Below are positions 2,431-26,177 of a DNA stretch of 28,506 bases, in pieces; positions within the stretch are counted from its first letter, which is position 1; each line of letters begins with the position of its first letter. Under the pieces are notes generated by a model. It did no database searches, was not told the origin of the DNA, and saw only the letters and a list, made by a program, of their open reading frames with translations. The position numbers were made by a program, and so were the translations under genes. Source of the stretch: Gemmatimonadaceae bacterium (lineage in GTDB: Bacteria > Gemmatimonadota > Gemmatimonadetes > Gemmatimonadales > Gemmatimonadaceae); NCBI GenBank assembly GCA_035698205.1, contig DASSBZ010000017.1, positions 1-28,506 of the forward strand, written 5' to 3'.

Positions 2431-3204
2431 TCAGTGGGAGAATCCGTACATGATGTAGTTCACACCCAGCTTGTAGGCTTCGTTGGTAAGCGGAATCGGC
2501 AGGAATCCCTCGGCCGACCACTGCCAGTAATCACCGATGTCGTTGTTGTAGTTCGCCACGACCAGGAGGCGCTTCGCGGGATCGTTGTCCTCGTAGAGTC
2601 CCATGAACAGCGAGCGTCCCCCGTAGTTCGGTTCGGAGAGGTCGAGCGTCTCGATACCGAGCATGGACTGGAAAACCGGGTTCGTGACGTCGAGCTCGAC
2701 GAACTGCAGCCCCGGCAGCACGCGCGACATCACCTCGGCGAAGTTGTACCAGTGCTGGCCGCGGAAGTCGTCCACAATGAGAAAGCCGCCCTTCTGCAGG
2801 TACTGCTGCAGCCCCGTGACCTCCGACTCCGTCGGGCGCCAGCACCCGGGCTCGGAGAGGTAGGCAATGGGGTGTCGCATGAGCTCCGGATCATCGGTGT
2901 CGAGCACGTAGCTGGAGTCGAGCCGGGGCTGCAGCGCCGTCAGCTCGCCAAGGATCTTCATCAGGTTGCGTTCGGCGATGGGATAGTCGTGCATCCACCC
3001 CGGGCCTTCATTGCTCATGCACCCGTAGCCCTGATAGCGAAGGCGCACGAAGGCGAACCGGCCGTCGTAGCGCGGATTCTGCTCGACGGTGATGTCACCC
3101 GAGAACCGTCGACCACGACGCCCCTGCGCAAATGCCGTCGCCACGACGGTCGTGAGCGCCACCAGGAAAATGGCCAGTACCGTACGCGGTCGTCGCAGGT
3201 TCAT
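2431..3204 (-). CDS. DUF4159-like secreted protein
   Basis: N-terminal signal peptide (MNLRRPRTVLAIFLVALTTVVATAFAQG). Conserved GGFLIVDDF core. ATG at 3204 overlaps the upstream stop (ATGA). GGAGGAGG Shine-Dalgarno 6 nt upstream. Family assignment is from memory of DUF4159 proteins that sit beside MoxR/DUF58/VWA genes. Confidence 0.75.
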   Translation of the reverse strand: MNLRRPRTVLAIFLVALTTVVATAFAQGRRGRRFSGDITVEQNPRYDGRFAFVRLRYQGYGCMSNEGPGWMHDYPIAERNLMKILGELTALQPRLDSSYVLDTDDPELMRHPIAYLSEPGCWRPTESEVTGLQQYLQKGGFLIVDDFRGQHWYNFAEVMSRVLPGLQFVELDVTNPVFQSMLGIETLDLSEPNYGGRSLFMGLYEDNDPAKRLLVVANYNNDIGDYWQWSAEGFLPIPLTNEAYKLGVNYIMYGFSH

Positions 3205-5930
3205 TGGATACCTCCTCCGGGCGGCGTCGAGGTGCCGCGTTGCAGCGTCAGCAGCAGATCCTGCGCCTCTCGAAAGCTGGGCGCCTCCTCCAGCGCGCGC
3301 AGCACCTCGCGGCGCGCCTGTGTACGGTCGCCCGCGTCGAGCAGGGCCTTCGCCAGTTGATAGTACGCCTCCGCACGATCCGTTGGCGCCAGCGCCACCA
3401 CCGCGCGTCGCTCCCGCACCACGGCCTGCGTGTTCGCCGTGGCCGTCAGCAGTTCGGCCAGCCGCTGGTGATCGGCGAGATCAAACGGCCAGATGTACAT
3501 CGCACGCTCGAGTACGCGCGCCGCGCCGGCGCTTTCCCCCTGCTGCTCGAGCAGGGTGGCCAGCAGGCGATGCGCCTCGTAGCTGGTTTCGTCGGAGTGC
3601 ACGACGGTCCGCAGCGCAGCGATCGCGGCCGGCTCATCACCGCGCGCCACGCTTATGGCAGCAAGCGCGCGATACGGGCTGGCCTCTCCCGTGTACTCGG
3701 GGAAGATCTCGCGTGCCGCGTCGAACTCGCGGATCGCGGCGGCGGTGTCCCCCGCCTGCAGCGTGCGGGTGGCGCGCTCGAGTGCCGCGACATAGTTGCC
3801 GGGGGGCACCTCGAGGCGCCCGGTACGCGCGTCGTCCGTCGCGCGCCGGAGCCGCGCGGGTTCCACGGCGTCGCGCCGCGCGCCAAACCGCTCGTCCAGC
3901 CAGGTCGCGAAGCGCTTGTCGAGCTCCTCGGGATCCAGCCGCAGCACGCGCTCGAACACCTGCGCGGTGCTCAGTCCGTCGCGCCACGCCAGCAGCATGT
4001 CGGTGAGCGCCTTCGCCCCGAACTCCCGCTCGATCATCTCGCATACCAGGGAGGCCTGATAGTACGAATGAATCACCTGCTGCGGGTAGGCCGGACGCAT
4101 GAAGCCGTCGTTCATGCGACTCACCGGTACGAGCAGGTCGCCCTTCCACGCGGCCAGGAAGTCGAGCGTCACGTTCGCCCCCCACCCCTCGCGTGCCCGG
4201 CGCTCCTCGAGCACAGAGAGCCCCTCGGAGAACCAGCGCGGCACCTCATGCGCGCTCGCGCCGAGGGTGAACGTGTGCGCCAGCTCGTGCCAGAACGTGG
4301 AGCCCCAGTTGAACTCGCCCTTCGCGCGCGCGGCCGGCGAGTCCATGGCCAGCGTGGTGCCGAACGACACACCCAGCGCACCGAGGCCGGCGAGTCCCAC
4401 CGTGCGGACGGAGAAGTCGGCGTGGCTGCGGAAGAACTCGATGCGGATCGGCGGCTCGGGGCGGATGCCATAGCGGGCGACCAGCGAGTCATAGGCCTCC
4501 TCGCCCAGCGGCGCCACATACAGCGCCAGCAGGTCCGCATCCTTCGCCTCGGCCATCATCAGGAAGCGCCCCGACGTGATCTCCCGGTAGCCATCGAAGG
4601 TATCCAGCAGGTCGAGCGTGTTCTTCACGCGCACGGTGTACGGATCGCCGGCGAAGGCACGTTCCAGGCTGGCACGCCCGGCGGCGATCTCGCCGTTGCG
4701 CAACTGGTTCTCACCCAGCACACCCCACGCGTGCCATGACGTGGAGTCCAGCGCCACGCCCTCGCCGGCGAACTCCTGCGCCCGTCGATAGTGCCGATTG
4801 CGCGCGCTCACCTCGCCTAACGTGGCAAAGAAGGAGGCGTCGCGAGGCCGGACGGCGAGCGCCTGCCGGCGGGTCGCGGCAAACCCGGCGTCATCGCCAC
4901 GGAGCGACTGCACGGCCCCCCGCATGGCCAGCGCCTCGGACGACGCCGGATCGATCGCCAGCGCCGAGTCGGCCTGGGCCGCGGCCCCTGCATAGTCCTC
5001 GGTATCGAGCAGCAACTGCGCGAGCATGGCGCGCGCCGGCACGTGCCCCGGATTCACCTCGAGCACCGCGCGAACGGACTCCATGGTGCCGGGCTCACCC
5101 TCGGCGTACTGCCGCCGCGCCGAGGCGAGCAGCGCGTCGGGGTGGCGCGGATTCACCTGCAGTACTGCCTCGATCGCCGACCGCGCATCCGCGAGGTTGT
5201 ACTTCTCGAGGAACAGCTCGGCCGCACCCACACGCGGGGCCAGCGCCTCCGGATCCTTCGCGATGGCGGCGTCGAACGCCTTGAGCGCGTCCTTGAACAG
5301 CTCCGGGTTGTCAGCACCGAGATGCCGGCAGGCGATGGCCACGGCCATCAGTTCATCCGACGAGAGCGCCGGACGTCGATCGTTCCAGACGTCGATGAAA
5401 TGGTCGAACTCGCGCATGGCGCCAGCGCGATCGCCCCCGGCAAGCAGAAGCTCGGCGGCGCTCACGCGCGCGAGCAGGCTGTCGGATGCCCCTCCGCTCA
5501 CCGCGGCGGCATACGCCGCAGCGGCATCGTCCCGCTTGCCGCGGCGGCGCAGCACGTCGCCGAGTGCGCGCTGCAACTGCACATCGCCGGCCGCGACGAA
5601 TGTTCGCGCGGCGGCTTCGGCCTCGTCGTAGCGACCCACCGCGGAGAGCGCGTCCACAAGTCCGCGGCGCGCCACCACCGAGCCGCCACCGTCGCGACCG
5701 GTCAGCGCGCGGAACGCGGAAATGGCGTCATCGTAGCGCCCCTCGCGCAGCGCGGTTCTCGCCGCCCCTTCGGGATCCTGCTGGGAGAGCGCCCACGTGC
5801 CGTCGTTGCCGCATGAAAGCAGCATGACACACGACAGCACGAGCAGCAGCATGCCCGCGCGCCCGCGTGCATCGCCGCGGCCACGATCTGCACGCCTGCC
5901 GCCCGCCGGATGACGAAGGGCCGCGATCAC
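3201..5930 (-). CDS. TPR-repeat lipoprotein with embedded peptidase-MA-like (HEXXH) metallopeptidase core
   Basis: Many TPR-like helical repeats. Central WHELAHTF...EGLSVLEE (HEXXH plus a downstream Glu) resembles Peptidase_MA_2 domains that are commonly fused to TPRs. Lipobox LLSC|G. The start is ambiguous: GTG at 5930 forms a GTGA overlap with the upstream stop, or ATG at 5852 directly begins MLLLVLSCVMLLSC. Confidence 0.75.
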   Translation of the reverse strand: MIAALRHPAGGRRADRGRGDARGRAGMLLLVLSCVMLLSCGNDGTWALSQQDPEGAARTALREGRYDDAISAFRALTGRDGGGSVVARRGLVDALSAVGRYDEAEAAARTFVAAGDVQLQRALGDVLRRRGKRDDAAAAYAAAVSGGASDSLLARVSAAELLLAGGDRAGAMREFDHFIDVWNDRRPALSSDELMAVAIACRHLGADNPELFKDALKAFDAAIAKDPEALAPRVGAAELFLEKYNLADARSAIEAVLQVNPRHPDALLASARRQYAEGEPGTMESVRAVLEVNPGHVPARAMLAQLLLDTEDYAGAAAQADSALAIDPASSEALAMRGAVQSLRGDDAGFAATRRQALAVRPRDASFFATLGEVSARNRHYRRAQEFAGEGVALDSTSWHAWGVLGENQLRNGEIAAGRASLERAFAGDPYTVRVKNTLDLLDTFDGYREITSGRFLMMAEAKDADLLALYVAPLGEEAYDSLVARYGIRPEPPIRIEFFRSHADFSVRTVGLAGLGALGVSFGTTLAMDSPAARAKGEFNWGSTFWHELAHTFTLGASAHEVPRWFSEGLSVLEERRAREGWGANVTLDFLAAWKGDLLVPVSRMNDGFMRPAYPQQVIHSYYQASLVCEMIEREFGAKALTDMLLAWRDGLSTAQVFERVLRLDPEELDKRFATWLDERFGARRDAVEPARLRRATDDARTGRLEVPPGNYVAALERATRTLQAGDTAAAIREFDAAREIFPEYTGEASPYRALAAISVARGDEPAAIAALRTVVHSDETSYEAHRLLATLLEQQGESAGAARVLERAMYIWPFDLADHQRLAELLTATANTQAVVRERRAVVALAPTDRAEAYYQLAKALLDAGDRTQARREVLRALEEAPSFREAQDLLLTLQRGTSTPPGGGIQ

Positions 5931-9448: not shown

Positions 9449-9736
9449 CTAGTCGGCGCGAATCACGTCGCGCAGCCGCTCGCAGTCGTGCAGGAGCAGC
9501 GCGGTGACCTCCTCGTCTCCGCCATAGATGCGACGCCGTTCGGGGCTGAAAAGGATGTCGGTCCAGGTGGCGATGCTGGCGAGCTTGGAGCCGATCACGG
9601 CGTGCTCACCCGGTGCATCGCGCAATCGCGTGACGATCGCGCGCACCCCTGCCTTGACCCGCTCGTCGTCGTGACGAGCGGTCGCCGTCAGCCCCTCGAT
9701 CTCTTCGACCAGCGCCAACGCCTCGTCACGCGTCAT
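9449..9736 (-). CDS. small acidic hypothetical protein (95 aa)
   Basis: ATG at 9736 with GGAGGA 4-5 nt upstream. Helical acidic sequence MTRDEALALVEEIEG... I do not recognise a family. The longer ORF-track version (start 9910) lacks a ribosome-binding site. Confidence 0.5.
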   Translation of the reverse strand: MTRDEALALVEEIEGLTATARHDDERVKAGVRAIVTRLRDAPGEHAVIGSKLASIATWTDILFSPERRRIYGGDEEVTALLLHDCERLRDVIRAD

Positions 9737-9954: not shown

Positions 9955-10884
9955 ATGTCCGGCCGAACGGTCACCACGAAGCCCCGCCCCACCACGTTTC
10001 TCGACGCGCCGCGCCTGTCCGACGACCTCGGACTCGAGCTCGTGCTTGCGTGCGAGACGTTCCAGATCACCGGCAGCTTCAAGTTCCGGGCGGCCTGGTC
10101 GCTGGCGGCGAATGTGCCGAATCCCCATGTGATCGCCGCGTCATCAGGAAACTTCGGGCAGGCGCTGGCGCTCGCCTGCAAGCTGTTCGGCAAGCGGAGC
10201 ACGATCGTCATGCCGGCCAACTCGGCCCGCGTCAAGATCGATGCGGTCCGCACCAACGGCGGGACGGTCGATCTCGTCGACACGACAAAGACGCCGCGAG
10301 CCGAGCGTGTGGCGGCGCTCGCCGATGCCGACCCCGAGGCATATGTCGCAAGCGCGTACGATGACCGCTGGGTCATCGAGGGGAACGCAACGCTGGGAGA
10401 CGAGGTCTGTCAGCGCGATCCGCGCCCCGAAGTCATCGTCGTCCCCGTCGGCGGTGGCGGACTCGCCTCGGGGATCGTCTCCGCGGTCCGGGCCGCGGGG
10501 CTGGCAGGGTCAGTGGCCGTCGTGGGCGCGGAACCGGCGCTGGCGAACGACGCCGCCCGATCGCTGCGCGAGGGGCGGATCGTCGCCAATGAATCGGAGC
10601 CACAGACCATGGCGGACGGCGCACGGACGCTCAGCGTGGGTGAGCAGAACTGGGCGCTGCTTCGCGATGGGCTCGAGACCATCGTCGAGGTTCCGGAGGA
10701 GCGCATCGTGGAGGCGCTGCGCCGCTACTTCGTGCAGGCAAACCTGAAGGTGGAACCGACGGGTGCGCTGGCGCTGGGCGCGATCCTCGCCAACCCCGAG
10801 CGCTTCAGCGGCCGCCGCACCTGCTGCGTGATCAGCGGCGGGAATGTCGATCCCGCGGTTTACGCACGGCTGCTCGTGGACTGA
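9955..10884 (+). CDS. PLP-dependent threonine/serine dehydratase-family enzyme (fold type II)
   Basis: PLP-lysine motif FQITGSFKFRAAW, glycine-rich VPVGGGGLASG loop, and length near 309 aa. Confidence 0.85.
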   Translation: MSGRTVTTKPRPTTFLDAPRLSDDLGLELVLACETFQITGSFKFRAAWSLAANVPNPHVIAASSGNFGQALALACKLFGKRSTIVMPANSARVKIDAVRTNGGTVDLVDTTKTPRAERVAALADADPEAYVASAYDDRWVIEGNATLGDEVCQRDPRPEVIVVPVGGGGLASGIVSAVRAAGLAGSVAVVGAEPALANDAARSLREGRIVANESEPQTMADGARTLSVGEQNWALLRDGLETIVEVPEERIVEALRRYFVQANLKVEPTGALALGAILANPERFSGRRTCCVISGGNVDPAVYARLLVD

Positions 10885-11810
10885 CGGGCAGCGCCGTTCG
10901 TCGTCGCCGGCGGTCCGGCGTCGGGTTGCGTATGATCACCCTCGAACGGCTCCATGTGCACCAGCACGCCGCTCACCTCCGGCACCGCCGCCATGATCGC
11001 GCGCTTCACCCGCCCGCTCAGGACGTGCGCATCGTGCAGCGACATGGTCGGCTCGGCCTGCACGTGGATGTCCACGTGATACACGAGTCCGGTCTTGCGA
11101 ACGTTCAGCTTTTCGATCGCCTGGACGTCGCTGGTGTTGCGCGCGGCGCGGGCCACCGGCTCGACCACGCTGGCGCCCGGTGCGCGATCCATCAGGTCGC
11201 CGGACGCACGACGCGCCAGTGACGTCGCGTTCCATGCGATCACGCCGGCCGCCAGCAGCGCCGCCCAGTCGTCGGCGGATTCCCATCCGGGCCCGCCCCA
11301 CAGCGCGATGCTGATCCCGATGAAAGCGGCTGCCGAGGTGACCGCGTCGCTCGCATGATGCCACGCATCAGCGCGCACAGCCGTGCTGGGCAGGCTGTCG
11401 CTCACACGCAGCACGCGCCGGAACAGCCCGAACTTCACGACCATCACCGTCACCAGCACCGCCAGCGTCCATGGCGCCGGCGTCAGGTGCGGCGTCCGGA
11501 TCTCGCGCACGGCTTCGAGCCCGACCCAGAGTGCCGCGCCCATCAGCATGACCGACACCGCGAGCCCCGCCAGCGAATCAGCCTTGCCGTAGCCGAACGG
11601 GTAGGCGTCGTCGGGATCGCGCGACGCGACTCGCAGCCCCCCCCACACCACGAGCGAGCCCAGCACGTCGGCCATCGACTCGACCGCATCGGCGACGAGC
11701 GCATAGGTATGGCCAAGCACGCCCGCGGTCGCCTTGACAGCGGCCAGCAGGATGTTGGTAACGAGGCCGACCTGAACCAGACGAATGCCGCGCAGGGAGG
11801 GATCCGGCAT
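10860..11810 (-). CDS. Cation diffusion facilitator (CDF) family metal efflux transporter
   Basis: Six TM helices plus a C-terminal cytoplasmic domain. His/Asp-rich helices (HASDAVTS, HTYALVADAVESMAD). ATG at 11810. The ORF-track N-terminal extension is unlikely. Confidence 0.85.
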   Translation of the reverse strand: MPDPSLRGIRLVQVGLVTNILLAAVKATAGVLGHTYALVADAVESMADVLGSLVVWGGLRVASRDPDDAYPFGYGKADSLAGLAVSVMLMGAALWVGLEAVREIRTPHLTPAPWTLAVLVTVMVVKFGLFRRVLRVSDSLPSTAVRADAWHHASDAVTSAAAFIGISIALWGGPGWESADDWAALLAAGVIAWNATSLARRASGDLMDRAPGASVVEPVARAARNTSDVQAIEKLNVRKTGLVYHVDIHVQAEPTMSLHDAHVLSGRVKRAIMAAVPEVSGVLVHMEPFEGDHTQPDAGPPATTNGAARQSTSSRA

Positions 11811-11920
11811 GCGAATGGAGGTAAGCGTATCGCGAGGGCCGGGGCAAGTGCGGGCGCGGTTGACGGTGGCGGTGAAGTCGCGTAGCTCTGGGAGTATCCA
11901 CATCCCGTCGGGAGCCGTTC

Positions 11921-23322: not shown

Positions 23323-24585
23323 ATGCCTCTCACGCATCGTGTGCTTATCGCGGCGCTGGCCATCGCCACCGCCTCCCCTGCAATCCCGGTCCTTGCGCAG
23401 TCCGGCGCCGCGCAGTGCGCTCCCGACAATGCGGGTCTCACGCTCCCCGCCGGCTTTTGCGCGCAGATAGTGGCCGACAGCGTTGGCAATCCGCGACACG
23501 TGGTCGTGGCGCCCAACGGCGACGTGTACGTTGCGTTGCGCCGGGCAGCCGCGGGTTCCGGGGTGATGGCGCTGCGTGACACGAACGGCGACGGCGTGGC
23601 CGATGAGCGGCACACGTTCGGTGTGGGTGCCGGCTCCGGGATCGCACTCGCGAACGGCGTGCTGTACTTCGCGACCGACACGTCGGTTGTGCGCTGGCGC
23701 CTCGCGCCGGGCGCGCTCGTCCCGACCGGGGAGCCCGAAGTGGTGGTGAGCGGCCTGGCGCGCGGCCGCGCGCATTCGGCCAAGACCATCGCCATCGCGA
23801 ACGATGGGGCGCTGTTCGTGAACATCGGTGCGCCGTCCAACTCCTGCCAGTCTCGCGACCGTCAGTCCAAGGTGCCGGGGATGGATCCCTGCACGCTGCT
23901 CGATACCGCCGGCGGGATCTGGCGGTTCAGCACCGGGCGCACGGGCCAGCGTCAGTCCGACGGCGAACGGTGGGCGACCGGGTTGCGCAACGTCGTGGCG
24001 ATCACGCTCGGCCCCGACGGTGCCACCCCGTGGGGGGCGCAGCACGGCCGCGACATGCTGAGCGCCAACTGGGGATTCGACGAGGCCTACAACGCCGAGA
24101 ACCCCGGCGAGGAGCTCTTCCGGATCACGCAAGGCAGCGATTTCGGGTGGCCCACCTGCTACTGGTCGACCGCGCTGAAGAAAAAGGTGCTGGCTCCGGA
24201 GTACGGCGGCGACGGCACGGAGGTGGGGCGCTGCGCCGATGTGGGGCAGCCGCTCGTCACCTTCCCCGGCCACTGGGCGCCTAACGCGATGCTGTTCTAC
24301 GGCGGGGCGCAGTTCCCCGAGCGCTACCGCGGCGGCATCTTCGTGGCGTTCCACGGCTCGTGGAACCGCGCGCCACTCCCCCAGGCCGGCTTCAACGTGG
24401 TGTTCGTCCCCATGGCGAACGGCGCGCCGTCCGGCCCATACGAGGTGTTCGCCGACGGCTTCCGCGACGACGAACGTCGCCCGCACCGACCGAGCGGGCT
24501 CGCCGTGGCGCCGGATGGATCACTCGTGGTCACGGATGATACGCGGGGACGGGTCTATCGGATTTCGTATACGGGGGGACGCTAG
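23323..24585 (+). CDS. Secreted PQQ-dependent sugar (glucose/sorbosone) dehydrogenase-like beta-propeller
   Basis: Signal peptide MPLTHRVLIAALAIATASPAIPVLAQS. GSDH-family motifs (GLRNVVAITLGPDG, GSDFGWP, LVVTDDTRGRVYRI). Confidence 0.85.
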   Translation: MPLTHRVLIAALAIATASPAIPVLAQSGAAQCAPDNAGLTLPAGFCAQIVADSVGNPRHVVVAPNGDVYVALRRAAAGSGVMALRDTNGDGVADERHTFGVGAGSGIALANGVLYFATDTSVVRWRLAPGALVPTGEPEVVVSGLARGRAHSAKTIAIANDGALFVNIGAPSNSCQSRDRQSKVPGMDPCTLLDTAGGIWRFSTGRTGQRQSDGERWATGLRNVVAITLGPDGATPWGAQHGRDMLSANWGFDEAYNAENPGEELFRITQGSDFGWPTCYWSTALKKKVLAPEYGGDGTEVGRCADVGQPLVTFPGHWAPNAMLFYGGAQFPERYRGGIFVAFHGSWNRAPLPQAGFNVVFVPMANGAPSGPYEVFADGFRDDERRPHRPSGLAVAPDGSLVVTDDTRGRVYRISYTGGR

Positions 24586-24829
24586 GGAACAGCATGCTGC
24601 GTGCTTCACGCTGTATGCTGTACGCTGCGCGCCTCATCGTAAGGAGTGCGAAGCACGCATCGGCTTGACGGGGCGCGGCATGCAGCATGCAGCAGCCGGA
24701 GGCAGCAACAAAAGACCTGCCCCCGAGTGCTGCATGCAGCCGCCCCGTGTAGCGACCGCCGAACCGCTCCATGAATCCGGATGCACGCAGCCACCAGCAT
24801 ACAGCGTGTAGCACGCAGCATGCTGTTCC
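24586..24829. repeat. 244-bp element bounded by 35-nt near-perfect terminal inverted repeats (MITE-like or structured RNA)
   Basis: 24586-24620 ggaacagcatgctgcgtgcttcacgctgtatgctg is the reverse complement of 24795-24829 with one mismatch. The interior is rich in CAGCATGC/GCATGCAG motifs. It fills the gap between two convergent stop codons. Confidence 0.6.
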
Positions 24830-24848
24830 ATAGCCTGCTTCATCCGAT

Positions 24849-26177
24849 TTAATAGTTCCGATACTCCGGCATGAGGAACTCGCTCGGAACATCGGCCCCC
24901 GATATCTCCCCGGTCGCCGGATTCACCATCACCGCCCGTCCGGTGCGCACGGCCAGGTTGCCCAGCAGCACCATCTGCGTGAGCGGCCCGGCATGGCCGT
25001 CGAAGCTCGAGCCCCCGGTCGTGCCGTTTTTGCACGCTGCGATCCACTCGGCGTAGACGCTTTCCACCCGCGGATACTTCTCCGCAGGCGGGTTCGCCTT
25101 CACCGCGGCATCCTGTTCCGGGTCGAGCAGCCGCGGATTCTGTCCGTACATGCCGGCAATCAGCTTCCCCTTGTCGCCGACCCAGAGCTGGCCACCATCG
25201 GCGAACGCCGGCCACACCGCCGTCTGCGGCACCTCGGGCGGTCGCTGCGGGAACATGCTCCCGTCGCGCCATACCACCGTCACCGCCGGCCGGCCATTGC
25301 GTTCCGGAAACTCATAGGTGATCCGCGACGAGGCGGGAGCGGTCTCCGTGTAGAGCTTCGTGCTCTCGGGCACGATGCTCGTCGGAAAGCCCAGGTCGAG
25401 CGTCCAGAACGCGGCGTCCATGGCATGGCAGGCGATATCACCGAGCGCGCCCGTCCCGAAGTCCCACCAACCCCGCCAGCGGAACGGCGCATACGCCGGA
25501 TGATAGGGCCGCTCCGGTGCCGGACCGAGCCAGAGATTCCAGTCCAGCGTGGCGGGGGGCGTGTGCATCTCCGTCGGGCGCTCGATGGCCTGCGGCCAGA
25601 TGGGACGGTCGGTCCAGTAGTGCACCTCGCGCACGGGGCCGATCAGTCCCGCCTCCACCCATTCGCGGATCTGCCGCGTGCCCTCAGCGGCGTGCCCCTG
25701 GTTCCCCATCTGCGTCGCGACCTTCGTCGTCTTTGCCTTCGCCATCACCTGGCGGACTTCGCCGATGGTGCGCGCCAGCGGCTTCTGGCAGTAGACGTGC
25801 TTGCCCAGCGAGAGTGCGGCCATCACCACCGAGGCATGTACATGATCCGGCGTTGAGACCGTGATCGCGTCGATGTCGCGCTCCTTGTCCAGCAGCTCGC
25901 GAAAATCCTTGTAGCGCGTCGCCTTGGGAAAGTTGCGGAACGAGTCGGCCGCGGAGCGCTCGTCCACGTCACAGAGTGCGACGATGTTCTCCGTGCGCCC
26001 CATGCCGTTGACATCGTTGCGCCCCATCCCGCCCACGCCCACGCACGCCACGTTGAGCGTATCGCTTGGCGCCTGGAAGCCATGACCGAGTACGTGCCGT
26101 GGCACGATGGTGAATGCGAGCCCCGCACGGGCGAGGTCGCCGACGAATTCGCGACGATCGATCGGGTTGATGGCCAT
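24849..26177 (-). CDS. Tat-exported Gfo/Idh/MocA-family oxidoreductase (glycoside 3-dehydrogenase-like)
   Basis: Twin-arginine signal MAINPIDRREFVGDLARAGLAFT. Rossmann VACVGVGGMGRNDV. CQKPLA motif. Length 442 aa. ATG at 26177. Confidence 0.85.
   Translation of the reverse strand: MAINPIDRREFVGDLARAGLAFTIVPRHVLGHGFQAPSDTLNVACVGVGGMGRNDVNGMGRTENIVALCDVDERSAADSFRNFPKATRYKDFRELLDKERDIDAITVSTPDHVHASVVMAALSLGKHVYCQKPLARTIGEVRQVMAKAKTTKVATQMGNQGHAAEGTRQIREWVEAGLIGPVREVHYWTDRPIWPQAIERPTEMHTPPATLDWNLWLGPAPERPYHPAYAPFRWRGWWDFGTGALGDIACHAMDAAFWTLDLGFPTSIVPESTKLYTETAPASSRITYEFPERNGRPAVTVVWRDGSMFPQRPPEVPQTAVWPAFADGGQLWVGDKGKLIAGMYGQNPRLLDPEQDAAVKANPPAEKYPRVESVYAEWIAACKNGTTGGSSFDGHAGPLTQMVLLGNLAVRTGRAVMVNPATGEISGADVPSEFLMPEYRNY

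Follow-up and report, generated by a model that had tools for sequence, protein, structure and literature searches.

The genes for a pyrroloquinoline quinone (PQQ)-dependent sugar dehydrogenase (GSDH) and a Gfo/Idh/MocA oxidoreductase (Gfo) converge on contig DASSBZ010000017.1 of a Gemmatimonadaceae bacterium (GCA_035698205.1; the whole stretch analyzed, 28,506 nt, is referred to as the window). Nearly the entire spacer between their stop codons is one imperfect palindrome, and its arms are mirrored arrays of degenerate 7-nt repeats. In the explanation that we favor, and to which we give about an even chance of being correct, this element is a lineage-specific quasi-palindrome of simple sequence repeats that evolves in situ under slippage and template switching, and that probably provides both genes with a 3′ hairpin lacking a U-tract. 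A preliminary description of the same DNA had offered a miniature inverted-repeat transposable element (MITE), a REP-like or structured RNA element, and a bidirectional terminator as candidate identities. The element has the looks of a textbook MITE, but local generation of repeat DNA accounts for it better, and in that respect it is a cautionary case.

Architecture of the palindrome and its heptamer arrays

Direct comparison of 24586–24620 with 24795–24829 confirmed the 35-nt terminal inverted repeats of the preliminary description, which are reverse complements at 34 of 35 nt. The coordinates likewise bear out where these repeats were said to lie: the left one adjoins the GSDH stop codon (TAG, 24583–24585) and 19 nt separate the right one from the Gfo stop codon (minus-strand TAA, 24849–24851), within a stop-to-stop spacer of 263 nt (24586–24848). 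The outermost 20 nt, GGAACAGCATGCTGCGTGCT, are the same at both termini, and two matches of this kind were found in 0 of 100 shuffles of the window. The inverted repeat is larger than first described, with 55-nt arms (24581–24635 and 24780–24834) that are 87% complementary and that take in the GSDH stop codon at their outer end. Inner inverted repeats (24682–24705/24717–24740 and 24663–24675/24741–24753) share a common center with the outer arms near 24708, and the whole ~254 nt fold as a single hairpin on either strand (Table 1). The folding energy as RNA is −162 kcal/mol for the plus strand (z = −9.3) and −172 kcal/mol for the minus strand (z = −9.7), and as DNA it is −96.9 kcal/mol (z = −10.7); no shuffle equaled these values. 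The left outer arm also folds on its own (24584–24603/24607–24626, 20 nt, 80%).

Table 1. Features of the GSDH/Gfo junction in window coordinates (GC3, GC content at third codon positions)
Feature	Position	Strand	Remarks
PQQ-dependent sugar (glucose/sorbosone) dehydrogenase gene, GSDH	23323–24585	+	Pfam GSDH/NHL; 100% match to HET6679696.1; GC3 0.86
Left outer arm	24581–24635		Holds the 35-nt repeat 24586–24620 and a degenerate heptamer array, 24592–24633
Inner-left segment	24636–24681		Partly palindromic: 24663–24675 pairs with 24741–24753, and 24645–24659 pairs with part of the left arm
Apical hairpin	24682–24740		Arms 24682–24705 and 24717–24740 (24 nt, 83% complementary); 11-nt loop CAACAAAAGAC, 24706–24716
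Inner-right segment	24741–24779		Partial mirror of the inner-left segment; no L006 counterpart
Right outer arm	24780–24834		Mirror of the left arm; heptamer array 24789–24823
Spacer remainder before the Gfo stop codon	24835–24848		Includes part of GCCTGCTTCATCC (24833–24845)
Gfo/Idh/MocA oxidoreductase gene, convergent with GSDH	24849–26177	−	Pfam GFO_IDH_MocA and C-terminal domains; 100% match to HET6679697.1

The richness in CAGCATGC motifs is explained by a 7-nt periodicity that the preliminary description had overlooked. Autocorrelation at lag 7 is 0.45 across the whole element (z = 6.5, 0/2,000 shuffles), with an echo at lag 14 (z = 3.75, 2/2,000 shuffles); it is 0.54 in the left arm alone (z = 4.75, 0/2,000 shuffles) and reaches z = 4.2 in the right arm alone. 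Each arm is an array of degenerate heptamers and mirrors the other, with units of the form GYRYGC plus T on the left (GCATGCT, GCGTGCT, TCACGCT, GTATGCT, GTACGCT, and GCGCGCC; 24592–24633) and A plus GYRYGC on the right (AGCCACC, AGCATAC, AGCGTGT, AGCACGC, and AGCATGC; 24789–24823). Written as patterns, (NNNNGCT)x5 at 24592–24626 and (AGCNNNN)x5 at 24789–24823 face each other in convergent orientation between the two stop codons. The regular expression (NNNNGCT)x4 matches only the left-arm site within the window, and no further GYRYGCT array is present in its 28.5 kb. A second, oppositely oriented pair of period-7 GCATGC-type units (GCATGCA x2.4) is carried by the apical arms, and Tandem Repeats Finder made period-7 calls, with low scores, at 24608–24627 and at 24678–24694 (100% matches). 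Because each unit adds a single base to a palindromic hexamer, GYRYGC, either arm is able to fold on itself and the motifs CAGCATGCTG and GCATGCAG keep recurring. Both motifs were found where the preliminary description had placed them, the self-complementary core CAGCATGCTG in each terminal repeat (24590 and 24816) and GCATGCAG three times in the interior (24678, 24685, and 24732); the latter occurs nowhere else in the window. The mirrored T-spaced and A-spaced arrays, together with the reversed apical pair, thus allow either strand to form one imperfect stem of ~125 bp.

Regular phasing of this kind could alternatively mark a protein-binding array, in which GCATGC boxes phased at 7 bp would be bound cooperatively in a centromere-like, silencing, or recombination site. 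Heptad arrays are bound cooperatively by ribbon-helix-helix proteins, an example being the omega repressor of pSM19035. The element contains five exact GCATGC boxes, where ~0.09 are expected, as well as degenerate GTATGC, GCGTGC, and GTACGC boxes, all in strict 7-bp phasing and in both direct and inverted orientation. Elsewhere in the window, however, GCATGC occurs at its expected frequency (10 versus 9.6), the boxes are not conserved in the related spacer considered below, and there is no partner gene nearby, the neighbors being metabolic enzymes and a transporter. The repeat units also differ between loci and between hairpins of a single locus, which argues for a mutational origin rather than one in recognition. 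A binding array is therefore considered very unlikely.

The view of the spacer as an unannotated, strongly structured, non-coding element is upheld by its position between convergent stop codons, by folding z scores of about −9.5 on both strands, and by the lack of an Rfam family. Neither the window nor the related spacer gave a match at Rfam gathering thresholds, and at E ≤ 10 the only matches were to generic miRNA-hairpin models, with 13–23 bits against thresholds of 34–150. The earlier statement that no open reading frame (ORF) is present needs qualification, as mechanical ORFs do cross the element. In substance it holds: GC by codon position is flat (0.62/0.62/0.65), versus a GC3 of 0.85 in the flanking genes, and the element-crossing ORFs have no Pfam match and no homologue in protein collections. 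When two translated frames of the element were compared with those collections, a word-indexed search returned nothing and an exhaustive search returned a single match, P0242. This was rejected as a homologue, being an unrelated 810-aa tandem-repeat protein whose score is summed over 13 stretches. The element is non-coding.

A diverged homologue of the spacer in a related contig

The only close relative available for this locus is a 4.3-kb European Nucleotide Archive contig with 3.6x coverage (ERZ28541676, here L006). L006 apart (GSDH 90% identical), no homologue of either flanking protein exceeded ~73% identity. L006 is syntenic on both sides (GSDH, 90% at the amino acid and 87% at the nucleotide level; the Gfo part, 90% at the nucleotide level), and its stop-to-stop gap of 250 nt, versus 263 nt in the window, contains homologous sequence. 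Identity between the two gaps is ~78% in the apical region, ~79% in the right arm (for both L006 copies of it), and ~74% in the left arm. The apical region (AAAGACCTGMCCCCG) is the best conserved, aligning with L006 3153–3212 (nhmmer E = 2.5e-6). The alignment continues across the boundary of the repeat into the end of the gene with no indel there; the TAG of the window aligns with an Arg codon in L006, where the stop codon comes one codon later.

The two gaps also differ in arrangement. L006 has no counterpart of the two inner segments of the window, the inner-left one falling in a stretch of approximately 24621–24690 that is unmatched, and L006 3190–3353 consists of an 82-nt tandem duplication (2.1 copies, ~90–91% identical) that holds the right arm. 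The L006 gap is still periodic (lag-7 z = 3.1), and AGC-phased arrays are present at 3196–3230 and 3278–3312, built from units different from those of the window and including GCTTCAT, GCTCCAC, and GCTGGTG; one GCATGC was seen by eye in the gap. The hairpin of L006 is modest, with 31-nt arms that are 77% complementary, the arm-internal hairpin is not conserved, and shuffled sequences fold as well as the complete L006 gap (z = 0.4 and −1.0). According to the preliminary description, a mobile element would be refuted if it were single-copy genome-wide and the orthologous gap carried the same sequence without an indel boundary at the repeats. On the second point L006 speaks largely against a mobile element, as its gap is homologous and has no indel at the repeats, but that gap has diverged about as much as four-fold degenerate sites and is rearranged, so that "the same sequence" does not describe it.

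Some smaller features of the two gaps can be recorded here. In L006, a third, partial arm-end, TCGCAGCATGCAGTT, adjoins the Gfo stop codon, and both convergent stop codons (TGA) lie inside the ends TGAAC...GTTTCA. The Gfo orthologue of L006 (3371–4291) was called as two pieces of 72 aa and 231 aa, which suggests a frameshift, possibly a sequencing error at 3.6x coverage. In the window, GCCTGCTTCATCC echoes the left-arm unit GCGTGCTTCACGC in direct rather than inverted orientation and agrees at 11 of 13 positions with GGCTGCTTCATGC, with which the left arm of L006 begins. The likeness may be left over from an earlier arrangement or may be due to chance (rough p ~0.1).

Between the window and L006, 29% of the four-fold degenerate sites in GSDH differ, and by this measure the primary sequence of the element drifts at a roughly neutral rate. 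If a perfect palindrome had been inherited and its arms had then drifted independently, ~73% complementarity would be expected, as calculated from the four-fold divergence, and a match of 34/35 has p ~2.5e-4. The near-identity of the arms is thus unlikely under simple inheritance, and the arms in the window were therefore homogenized, rebuilt, or newly introduced after the split, whereas those of L006 were not.

L006 also bears on the possibility that the palindrome is an assembly artefact, created by chimeric or hairpin-type misassembly of a metagenome contig. The window does come from a metagenome-assembled genome, and some library or assembly errors can create long palindromes. The element is, however, internal to its contig, between two intact and mutually different genes; it is imperfect and contains indels, unlike fold-back chimeras; and an independent assembly of another sample, L006, has a homologous gap of similar length. 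An artefact is barely credible on these grounds.

More distant relatives do not have the junction. In L087–L090 (GSDH ~68% identical), GSDH overlaps a convergent major facilitator superfamily (MFS; Nuc_H_symport) gene by 20 nt (e.g., L088 7244–7263), with neither Gfo nor a spacer, and in the window Gfo and the 263-nt spacer sit between GSDH and the MFS gene, marking a synteny breakpoint. Gfo faces other convergent genes in L004 and L005, with 0–6 nt between them, and in L091 (GSDH 70%) the first 70 nt downstream of the TAG bear no relation to the element. The GSDH/Gfo junction and its element are therefore specific to the clade of the window and L006, and the distant relatives, lacking the junction, are uninformative about an empty site.

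Copy number and the transposon-like features

For the source genome, the search for further copies covered this 28.5-kb contig, in which no second copy is present, and the L006 assembly was likewise covered by its 4.3-kb contig. The exact 20-mer terminus has no match in 596 Gb of species-representative genomes, a result that excludes diverged copies in GTDB less thoroughly. Three matches to it were obtained in 241 M JGI metagenome records (L001 729–748, L002 160–179, and L003 977–996), but these were rejected as copies, being chance matches inside what is apparently the same coding sequence, …RMLFRIGINLGDV…, with no likeness beyond the 20-mer. We take this coding sequence to be adenylate-cyclase-like, and on one or more of the three contigs the gene seems to be interrupted. 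The 18-mer terminus is absent from IMG/VR viral contigs, and blastn against plasmids and phages gave only sub-significant matches of 27–41 nt. A 1.3-Mb set of fetched loci from relatives and other phyla, including 80 Gfo-homologue loci, was compared with the window and L006 elements using blastn and nhmmer, and L006 was the sole match.

These searches weaken the first identity offered in the preliminary description, that of a MITE. Such an element would be IS630/Tc1-like, with a duplicated TA, or IS5-like, with CTAG/YTAR as its target, and would either have entered at the GSDH stop codon ahead of the split from L006 or been renewed later in the window lineage. The near-perfect 35-nt termini fit this proposal, as do a length of ~250 bp, the non-coding character, foldback over the whole length, and a GC content (0.63) below that of the flanks (0.68). 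The flanks read C-TA-G/GGAAC...GTTCC/A-TA-G, and excision would restore ...CGC TAG CC... with an intact stop codon; a precise empty site would read ...GACGCTAGCCTGCTTCATCC... (GGGGGGACGCTAGCCTGCTTCATCCGATTTAA); the location of the element at a lineage-specific junction is also as expected. Against this, the terminal 20-mer and 18-mer have no true copy in the genomes, the JGI metagenomes, or IMG/VR, and no copy was found in plasmids, phages, the 1.3 Mb of relatives' DNA, or protein space. The genes of the window are ordinary metabolic and transport genes, among which a Pfam scan found no transposase domain, and plasmid and phage records contain no match to the termini. No empty site was seen, the L006 site being filled with a diverged, rearranged homologue whose alignment runs unbroken over the boundary.

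The flanks themselves are weak evidence for an insertion. The preliminary description had read cTAG/aTAG as a possible target duplication, but the flanks are palindromic, the left one is the stop codon of GSDH, and the corresponding flanks in L006 differ; moreover, TA and CTAG are self-complementary and so would look no different if the inverted repeat simply ran on for four more bases. Tandem heptamers at the termini, together with an interior that is equally periodic, are untypical of transposase binding sites, and an old insertion would not be expected to keep termini matching at 34/35 in the face of 29% neutral divergence. A MITE is accordingly judged unlikely, if the most substantial of the alternatives. 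CTAG is rare in the window (two occurrences, at 9449 and 24582, versus ~85 expected from base composition), but this rarity was rejected as support for an IS630 or IS5 target site because both occurrences are TAG stop codons. Some hexamers in the window also depart from expectation: CCTAGG and GCTAGC are absent (9.6 expected each), GGGCCC occurs twice versus 43 expected, and ATCGAT and CGATCG are over-represented 4–5.5x.

Two other kinds of mobile sequence were considered. A REP/REPIN-like element would be a pair of short palindromes in inverted orientation, moved by a RAYT-type tyrosine transposase, and the outer arms do resemble REP doublets in that each self-folds and the two are inverted. 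However, the arm-internal hairpin is lost in L006 and is a trivial consequence of a near-palindromic heptamer, REPIN spacers are much shorter than the 174-nt interior, further copies were found neither in the 28.5 kb nor in any collection searched, and there is no RAYT gene in the window. The REP-like identity raised in the preliminary description is on this evidence extremely unlikely. An attC-like site, examined by eye, was rejected on three counts: the termini depart from RYYYAAC/GTTRRRY, the length is excessive, and no integrase accompanies the element.

The putative 3′ hairpin and comparison with known systems

The remaining identity proposed at the outset, a bidirectional terminator, is matched by the position of the element but fails the canonical definition, as there is no U-tract. 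One explanation along these lines is that the element is a selected bidirectional terminator or a structured RNA of the 3′ untranslated region, that the stem is kept by purifying selection through compensatory substitutions, and that the repeats are incidental. It would account for the placement exactly between convergent stop codons in both genomes, for the occurrence of a hairpin in both, and for comparable hairpins after gene 3′ ends in relatives. In one alignment register it is also favored by the same three substitutions on both arms (GCTGCGTGCTTCACG to GCTTCATGCTTCACC, and likewise in the reverse-complemented right arm). This triple compensatory change between the window and L006 was downgraded, as the 7-nt periodicity permits an equally good colinear register for the right arm in which the covariation disappears.

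Other results speak against selection for termination. No terminator-like site was found on either strand between 24300 and 25100, with no run of T or A beside the stem, and a scan of the element for sigma-70-like promoters found none. The stem, at ~125 bp, is far longer than any terminator requires, and no Rfam family includes it. Only one of the seven stem mismatches in the window is G-U, with no bias toward either strand, so that nothing points specifically to a function at the RNA level. The poor folding of the L006 gap and the modest complementarity of its arms argue against strong selection on structure. Spacers are also absent from other convergent junctions, such as those of L087–L090. 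Within the window, the genes for a PALP enzyme (9955–10884, plus strand) and a cation-efflux protein (10860–11903, minus strand) overlap by 25 nt (10860–10884), with no spacer or hairpin, and long hairpins are thus not a general need at the convergent junctions of this genome. We regard a selected terminator as rather improbable.

Several of the observations already given count against the favored explanation as well. Its in situ origin has to contend with the MITE-like termini, length, foldback, GC content, and flanks, and its 3′ hairpin with the missing terminator-like sites, the excessive stem, the want of a strand-specific G-U signal, the weak L006 hairpin, and the downgraded covariation. 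In addition, the locus is represented by two sequences in all, and at 3.6x coverage the fine detail of L006 (the duplication and the Gfo frameshift) may include errors; for the source genome, the count of copies covers one 28.5-kb contig.

In the quasi-palindrome explanation, spacer DNA would have arisen at the GSDH/Gfo convergent junction of this clade only. Polymerase slippage would then have multiplied the 7-nt units, local duplications and deletions would have reshaped the spacer, and intramolecular template switching may have copied one arm onto the other repeatedly, so that complementarity is kept or made while the sequence drifts almost neutrally. Both convergent transcripts would enter the spacer directly after their stop codons, and each would gain a very stable 3′ stem-loop. 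Even with no U-tract, such a structure could arrest or delay RNA polymerase, and it could also bar 3′-5′ exonucleases and reduce antisense read-through into the gene opposite. Both the mutational mechanism and this effect are what we infer from the sequences, the effect by analogy with REP/BIME or ERIC elements.

Hairpins with periodic arms were also found at other loci of the 1.3-Mb sample. At a minimum arm length of 24 nt, it contains 43 hairpins, of which the one in the window is the longest, and 14 of the 43 have significantly periodic arms, with a period of 7 in nine cases, 9 in four, and 8 in one. In a Gemmatimonadaceae relative (L005 6161–6238), (CGTGAAA)4.3 and (CGTTTCA)4 form an inverted pair between convergent genes, and tandem-heptamer arms are found in further hairpins at L012 6480–6589, L016 1743–1810, L046 8370–8441, and L058 6063–6126. 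At high-GC loci, the periodic hairpins lie directly past gene 3′ ends, in tandem or convergent contexts. Two hairpins 8 kb apart at one Gemmatimonadaceae locus (L011 1784–2015 and 9792–9915) both have a unit of the CACAGAGG/CACGGAGG type (best lag 9) and may constitute a genuine multi-copy repeat family of that genome. In Planctomycetota, direct arrays of AGCGTAC-type heptamers (L053 18490–18560 and L063 15748–15775) are close to right-arm units of the window (AGCATAC, AGCGTGT, and AGCACGC); no inverted partner of either array was found.

A bolder extension, which we advance as a speculation with little weight behind it, is that the element is the largest sampled case of a widespread, undescribed class of U-tract-less 3′-end hairpins in Gemmatimonadota, Acidobacteriota, Planctomycetota, and Bacteroidota. 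These would act as bidirectional or unidirectional transcription barriers, with stems of tandem 7–9-nt units that are rebuilt by slippage and template switching, such that structure persists while sequence turns over neutrally. If such a class exists, it would represent a mutation-driven way to make and maintain terminators. Should the hint from this survey, that a third of long intergenic hairpins in these phyla have periodic arms, mostly with a period of 7, and lie past 3′ ends, hold genome-wide, it would bear on how transcripts end in phyla where canonical U-tract terminators are scarce. The element itself is of small import: it is a single non-coding spacer from a soil bacterium not yet in culture, it gives no evidence of mobility, and it brings no new biochemistry. 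Its interest lies in a two-genome snapshot in which a long hairpin stays or becomes near-perfect under neutral drift, as models of template-switch hairpins predict.

Known bacterial MITEs include Correia/CREE, RUP, and Nezha elements, which are IS630-related with a TA duplication, and IS5-type elements target CTAG/YTAR. The element resembles these in its size of ~250 bp, its non-coding sequence, its near-perfect termini and foldback, its place beside a stop codon, and its TA/CTAG-like flanks. It is unlike them in that no second copy or parent insertion sequence was found, the orthologous site is filled and no empty one was seen, and both termini and interior are composed of heptamer arrays. 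REP/BIME and ERIC elements, found at the 3′ ends of enterobacterial genes, are transcribed palindromes that form 3′ stem-loops, block 3′-5′ decay, and attenuate read-through. By analogy, the element probably works in a similar manner, as a 3′ stem-loop rather than a canonical terminator. Those elements, however, are genome-wide families with a consensus, whereas the element in the window is so far a single fast-evolving locus to which no family consensus applies. Like intrinsic bidirectional terminators, it places a GC-rich stem-loop, readable on either strand, between convergent genes, but it differs from them in having no U- or A-tract on either side and a stem ~10x the usual length.

Among mutational processes, template switching is documented as perfecting and expanding the arms of inverted repeats and as mimicking compensatory change (PMC7202029, PMC8794818, and PMC13100816). 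Template switching at a quasi-palindrome would explain arms that are 97% complementary despite ~25% drift, the seemingly compensatory substitutions, and a palindrome that reaches the stop codon, without selection for pairing. The documented cases concern short inverted repeats (tens of nucleotides) in E. coli, yeast, and primates, and the process would here be extended to 55-nt arms and ~250 nt. Among the long simple sequence repeats of bacteria, heptamers are the most common, and they are ascribed to slippage (PMC4679880); their general excess in bacteria is credited to Mrazek 2007, as cited in PMC4692102 and PMC4679880.

The closest counterparts are in Xanthomonas, where ~70–75 convergent pairs of intergenic GGGAATC heptamer arrays are capable of forming stem-loops and, with lengths that vary, stay in the same gene context from species to species (Rehm et al. 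2015, PMC4692102). As in those pairs, facing tandem arrays of 7-nt units occupy an intergenic region and have stem-loop or cruciform potential, and L006 retains the gap and its arrays while length and units vary. The Xanthomonas arrays are of unknown function and slippage has been invoked for their origin (PMC4692102). The differences are in scale and composition: Xanthomonas has one near-perfect G-rich unit at ~185 sites per genome, whereas the unit here is a degenerate GYRYGC plus T at one site within 28.5 kb, and the element in the window is based on a palindromic hexamer, has no G-quadruplex potential, is much longer, and contains a nested second inverted pair. The element is thus an unusually large example of a kind of bacterial intergenic repeat that has already been described.

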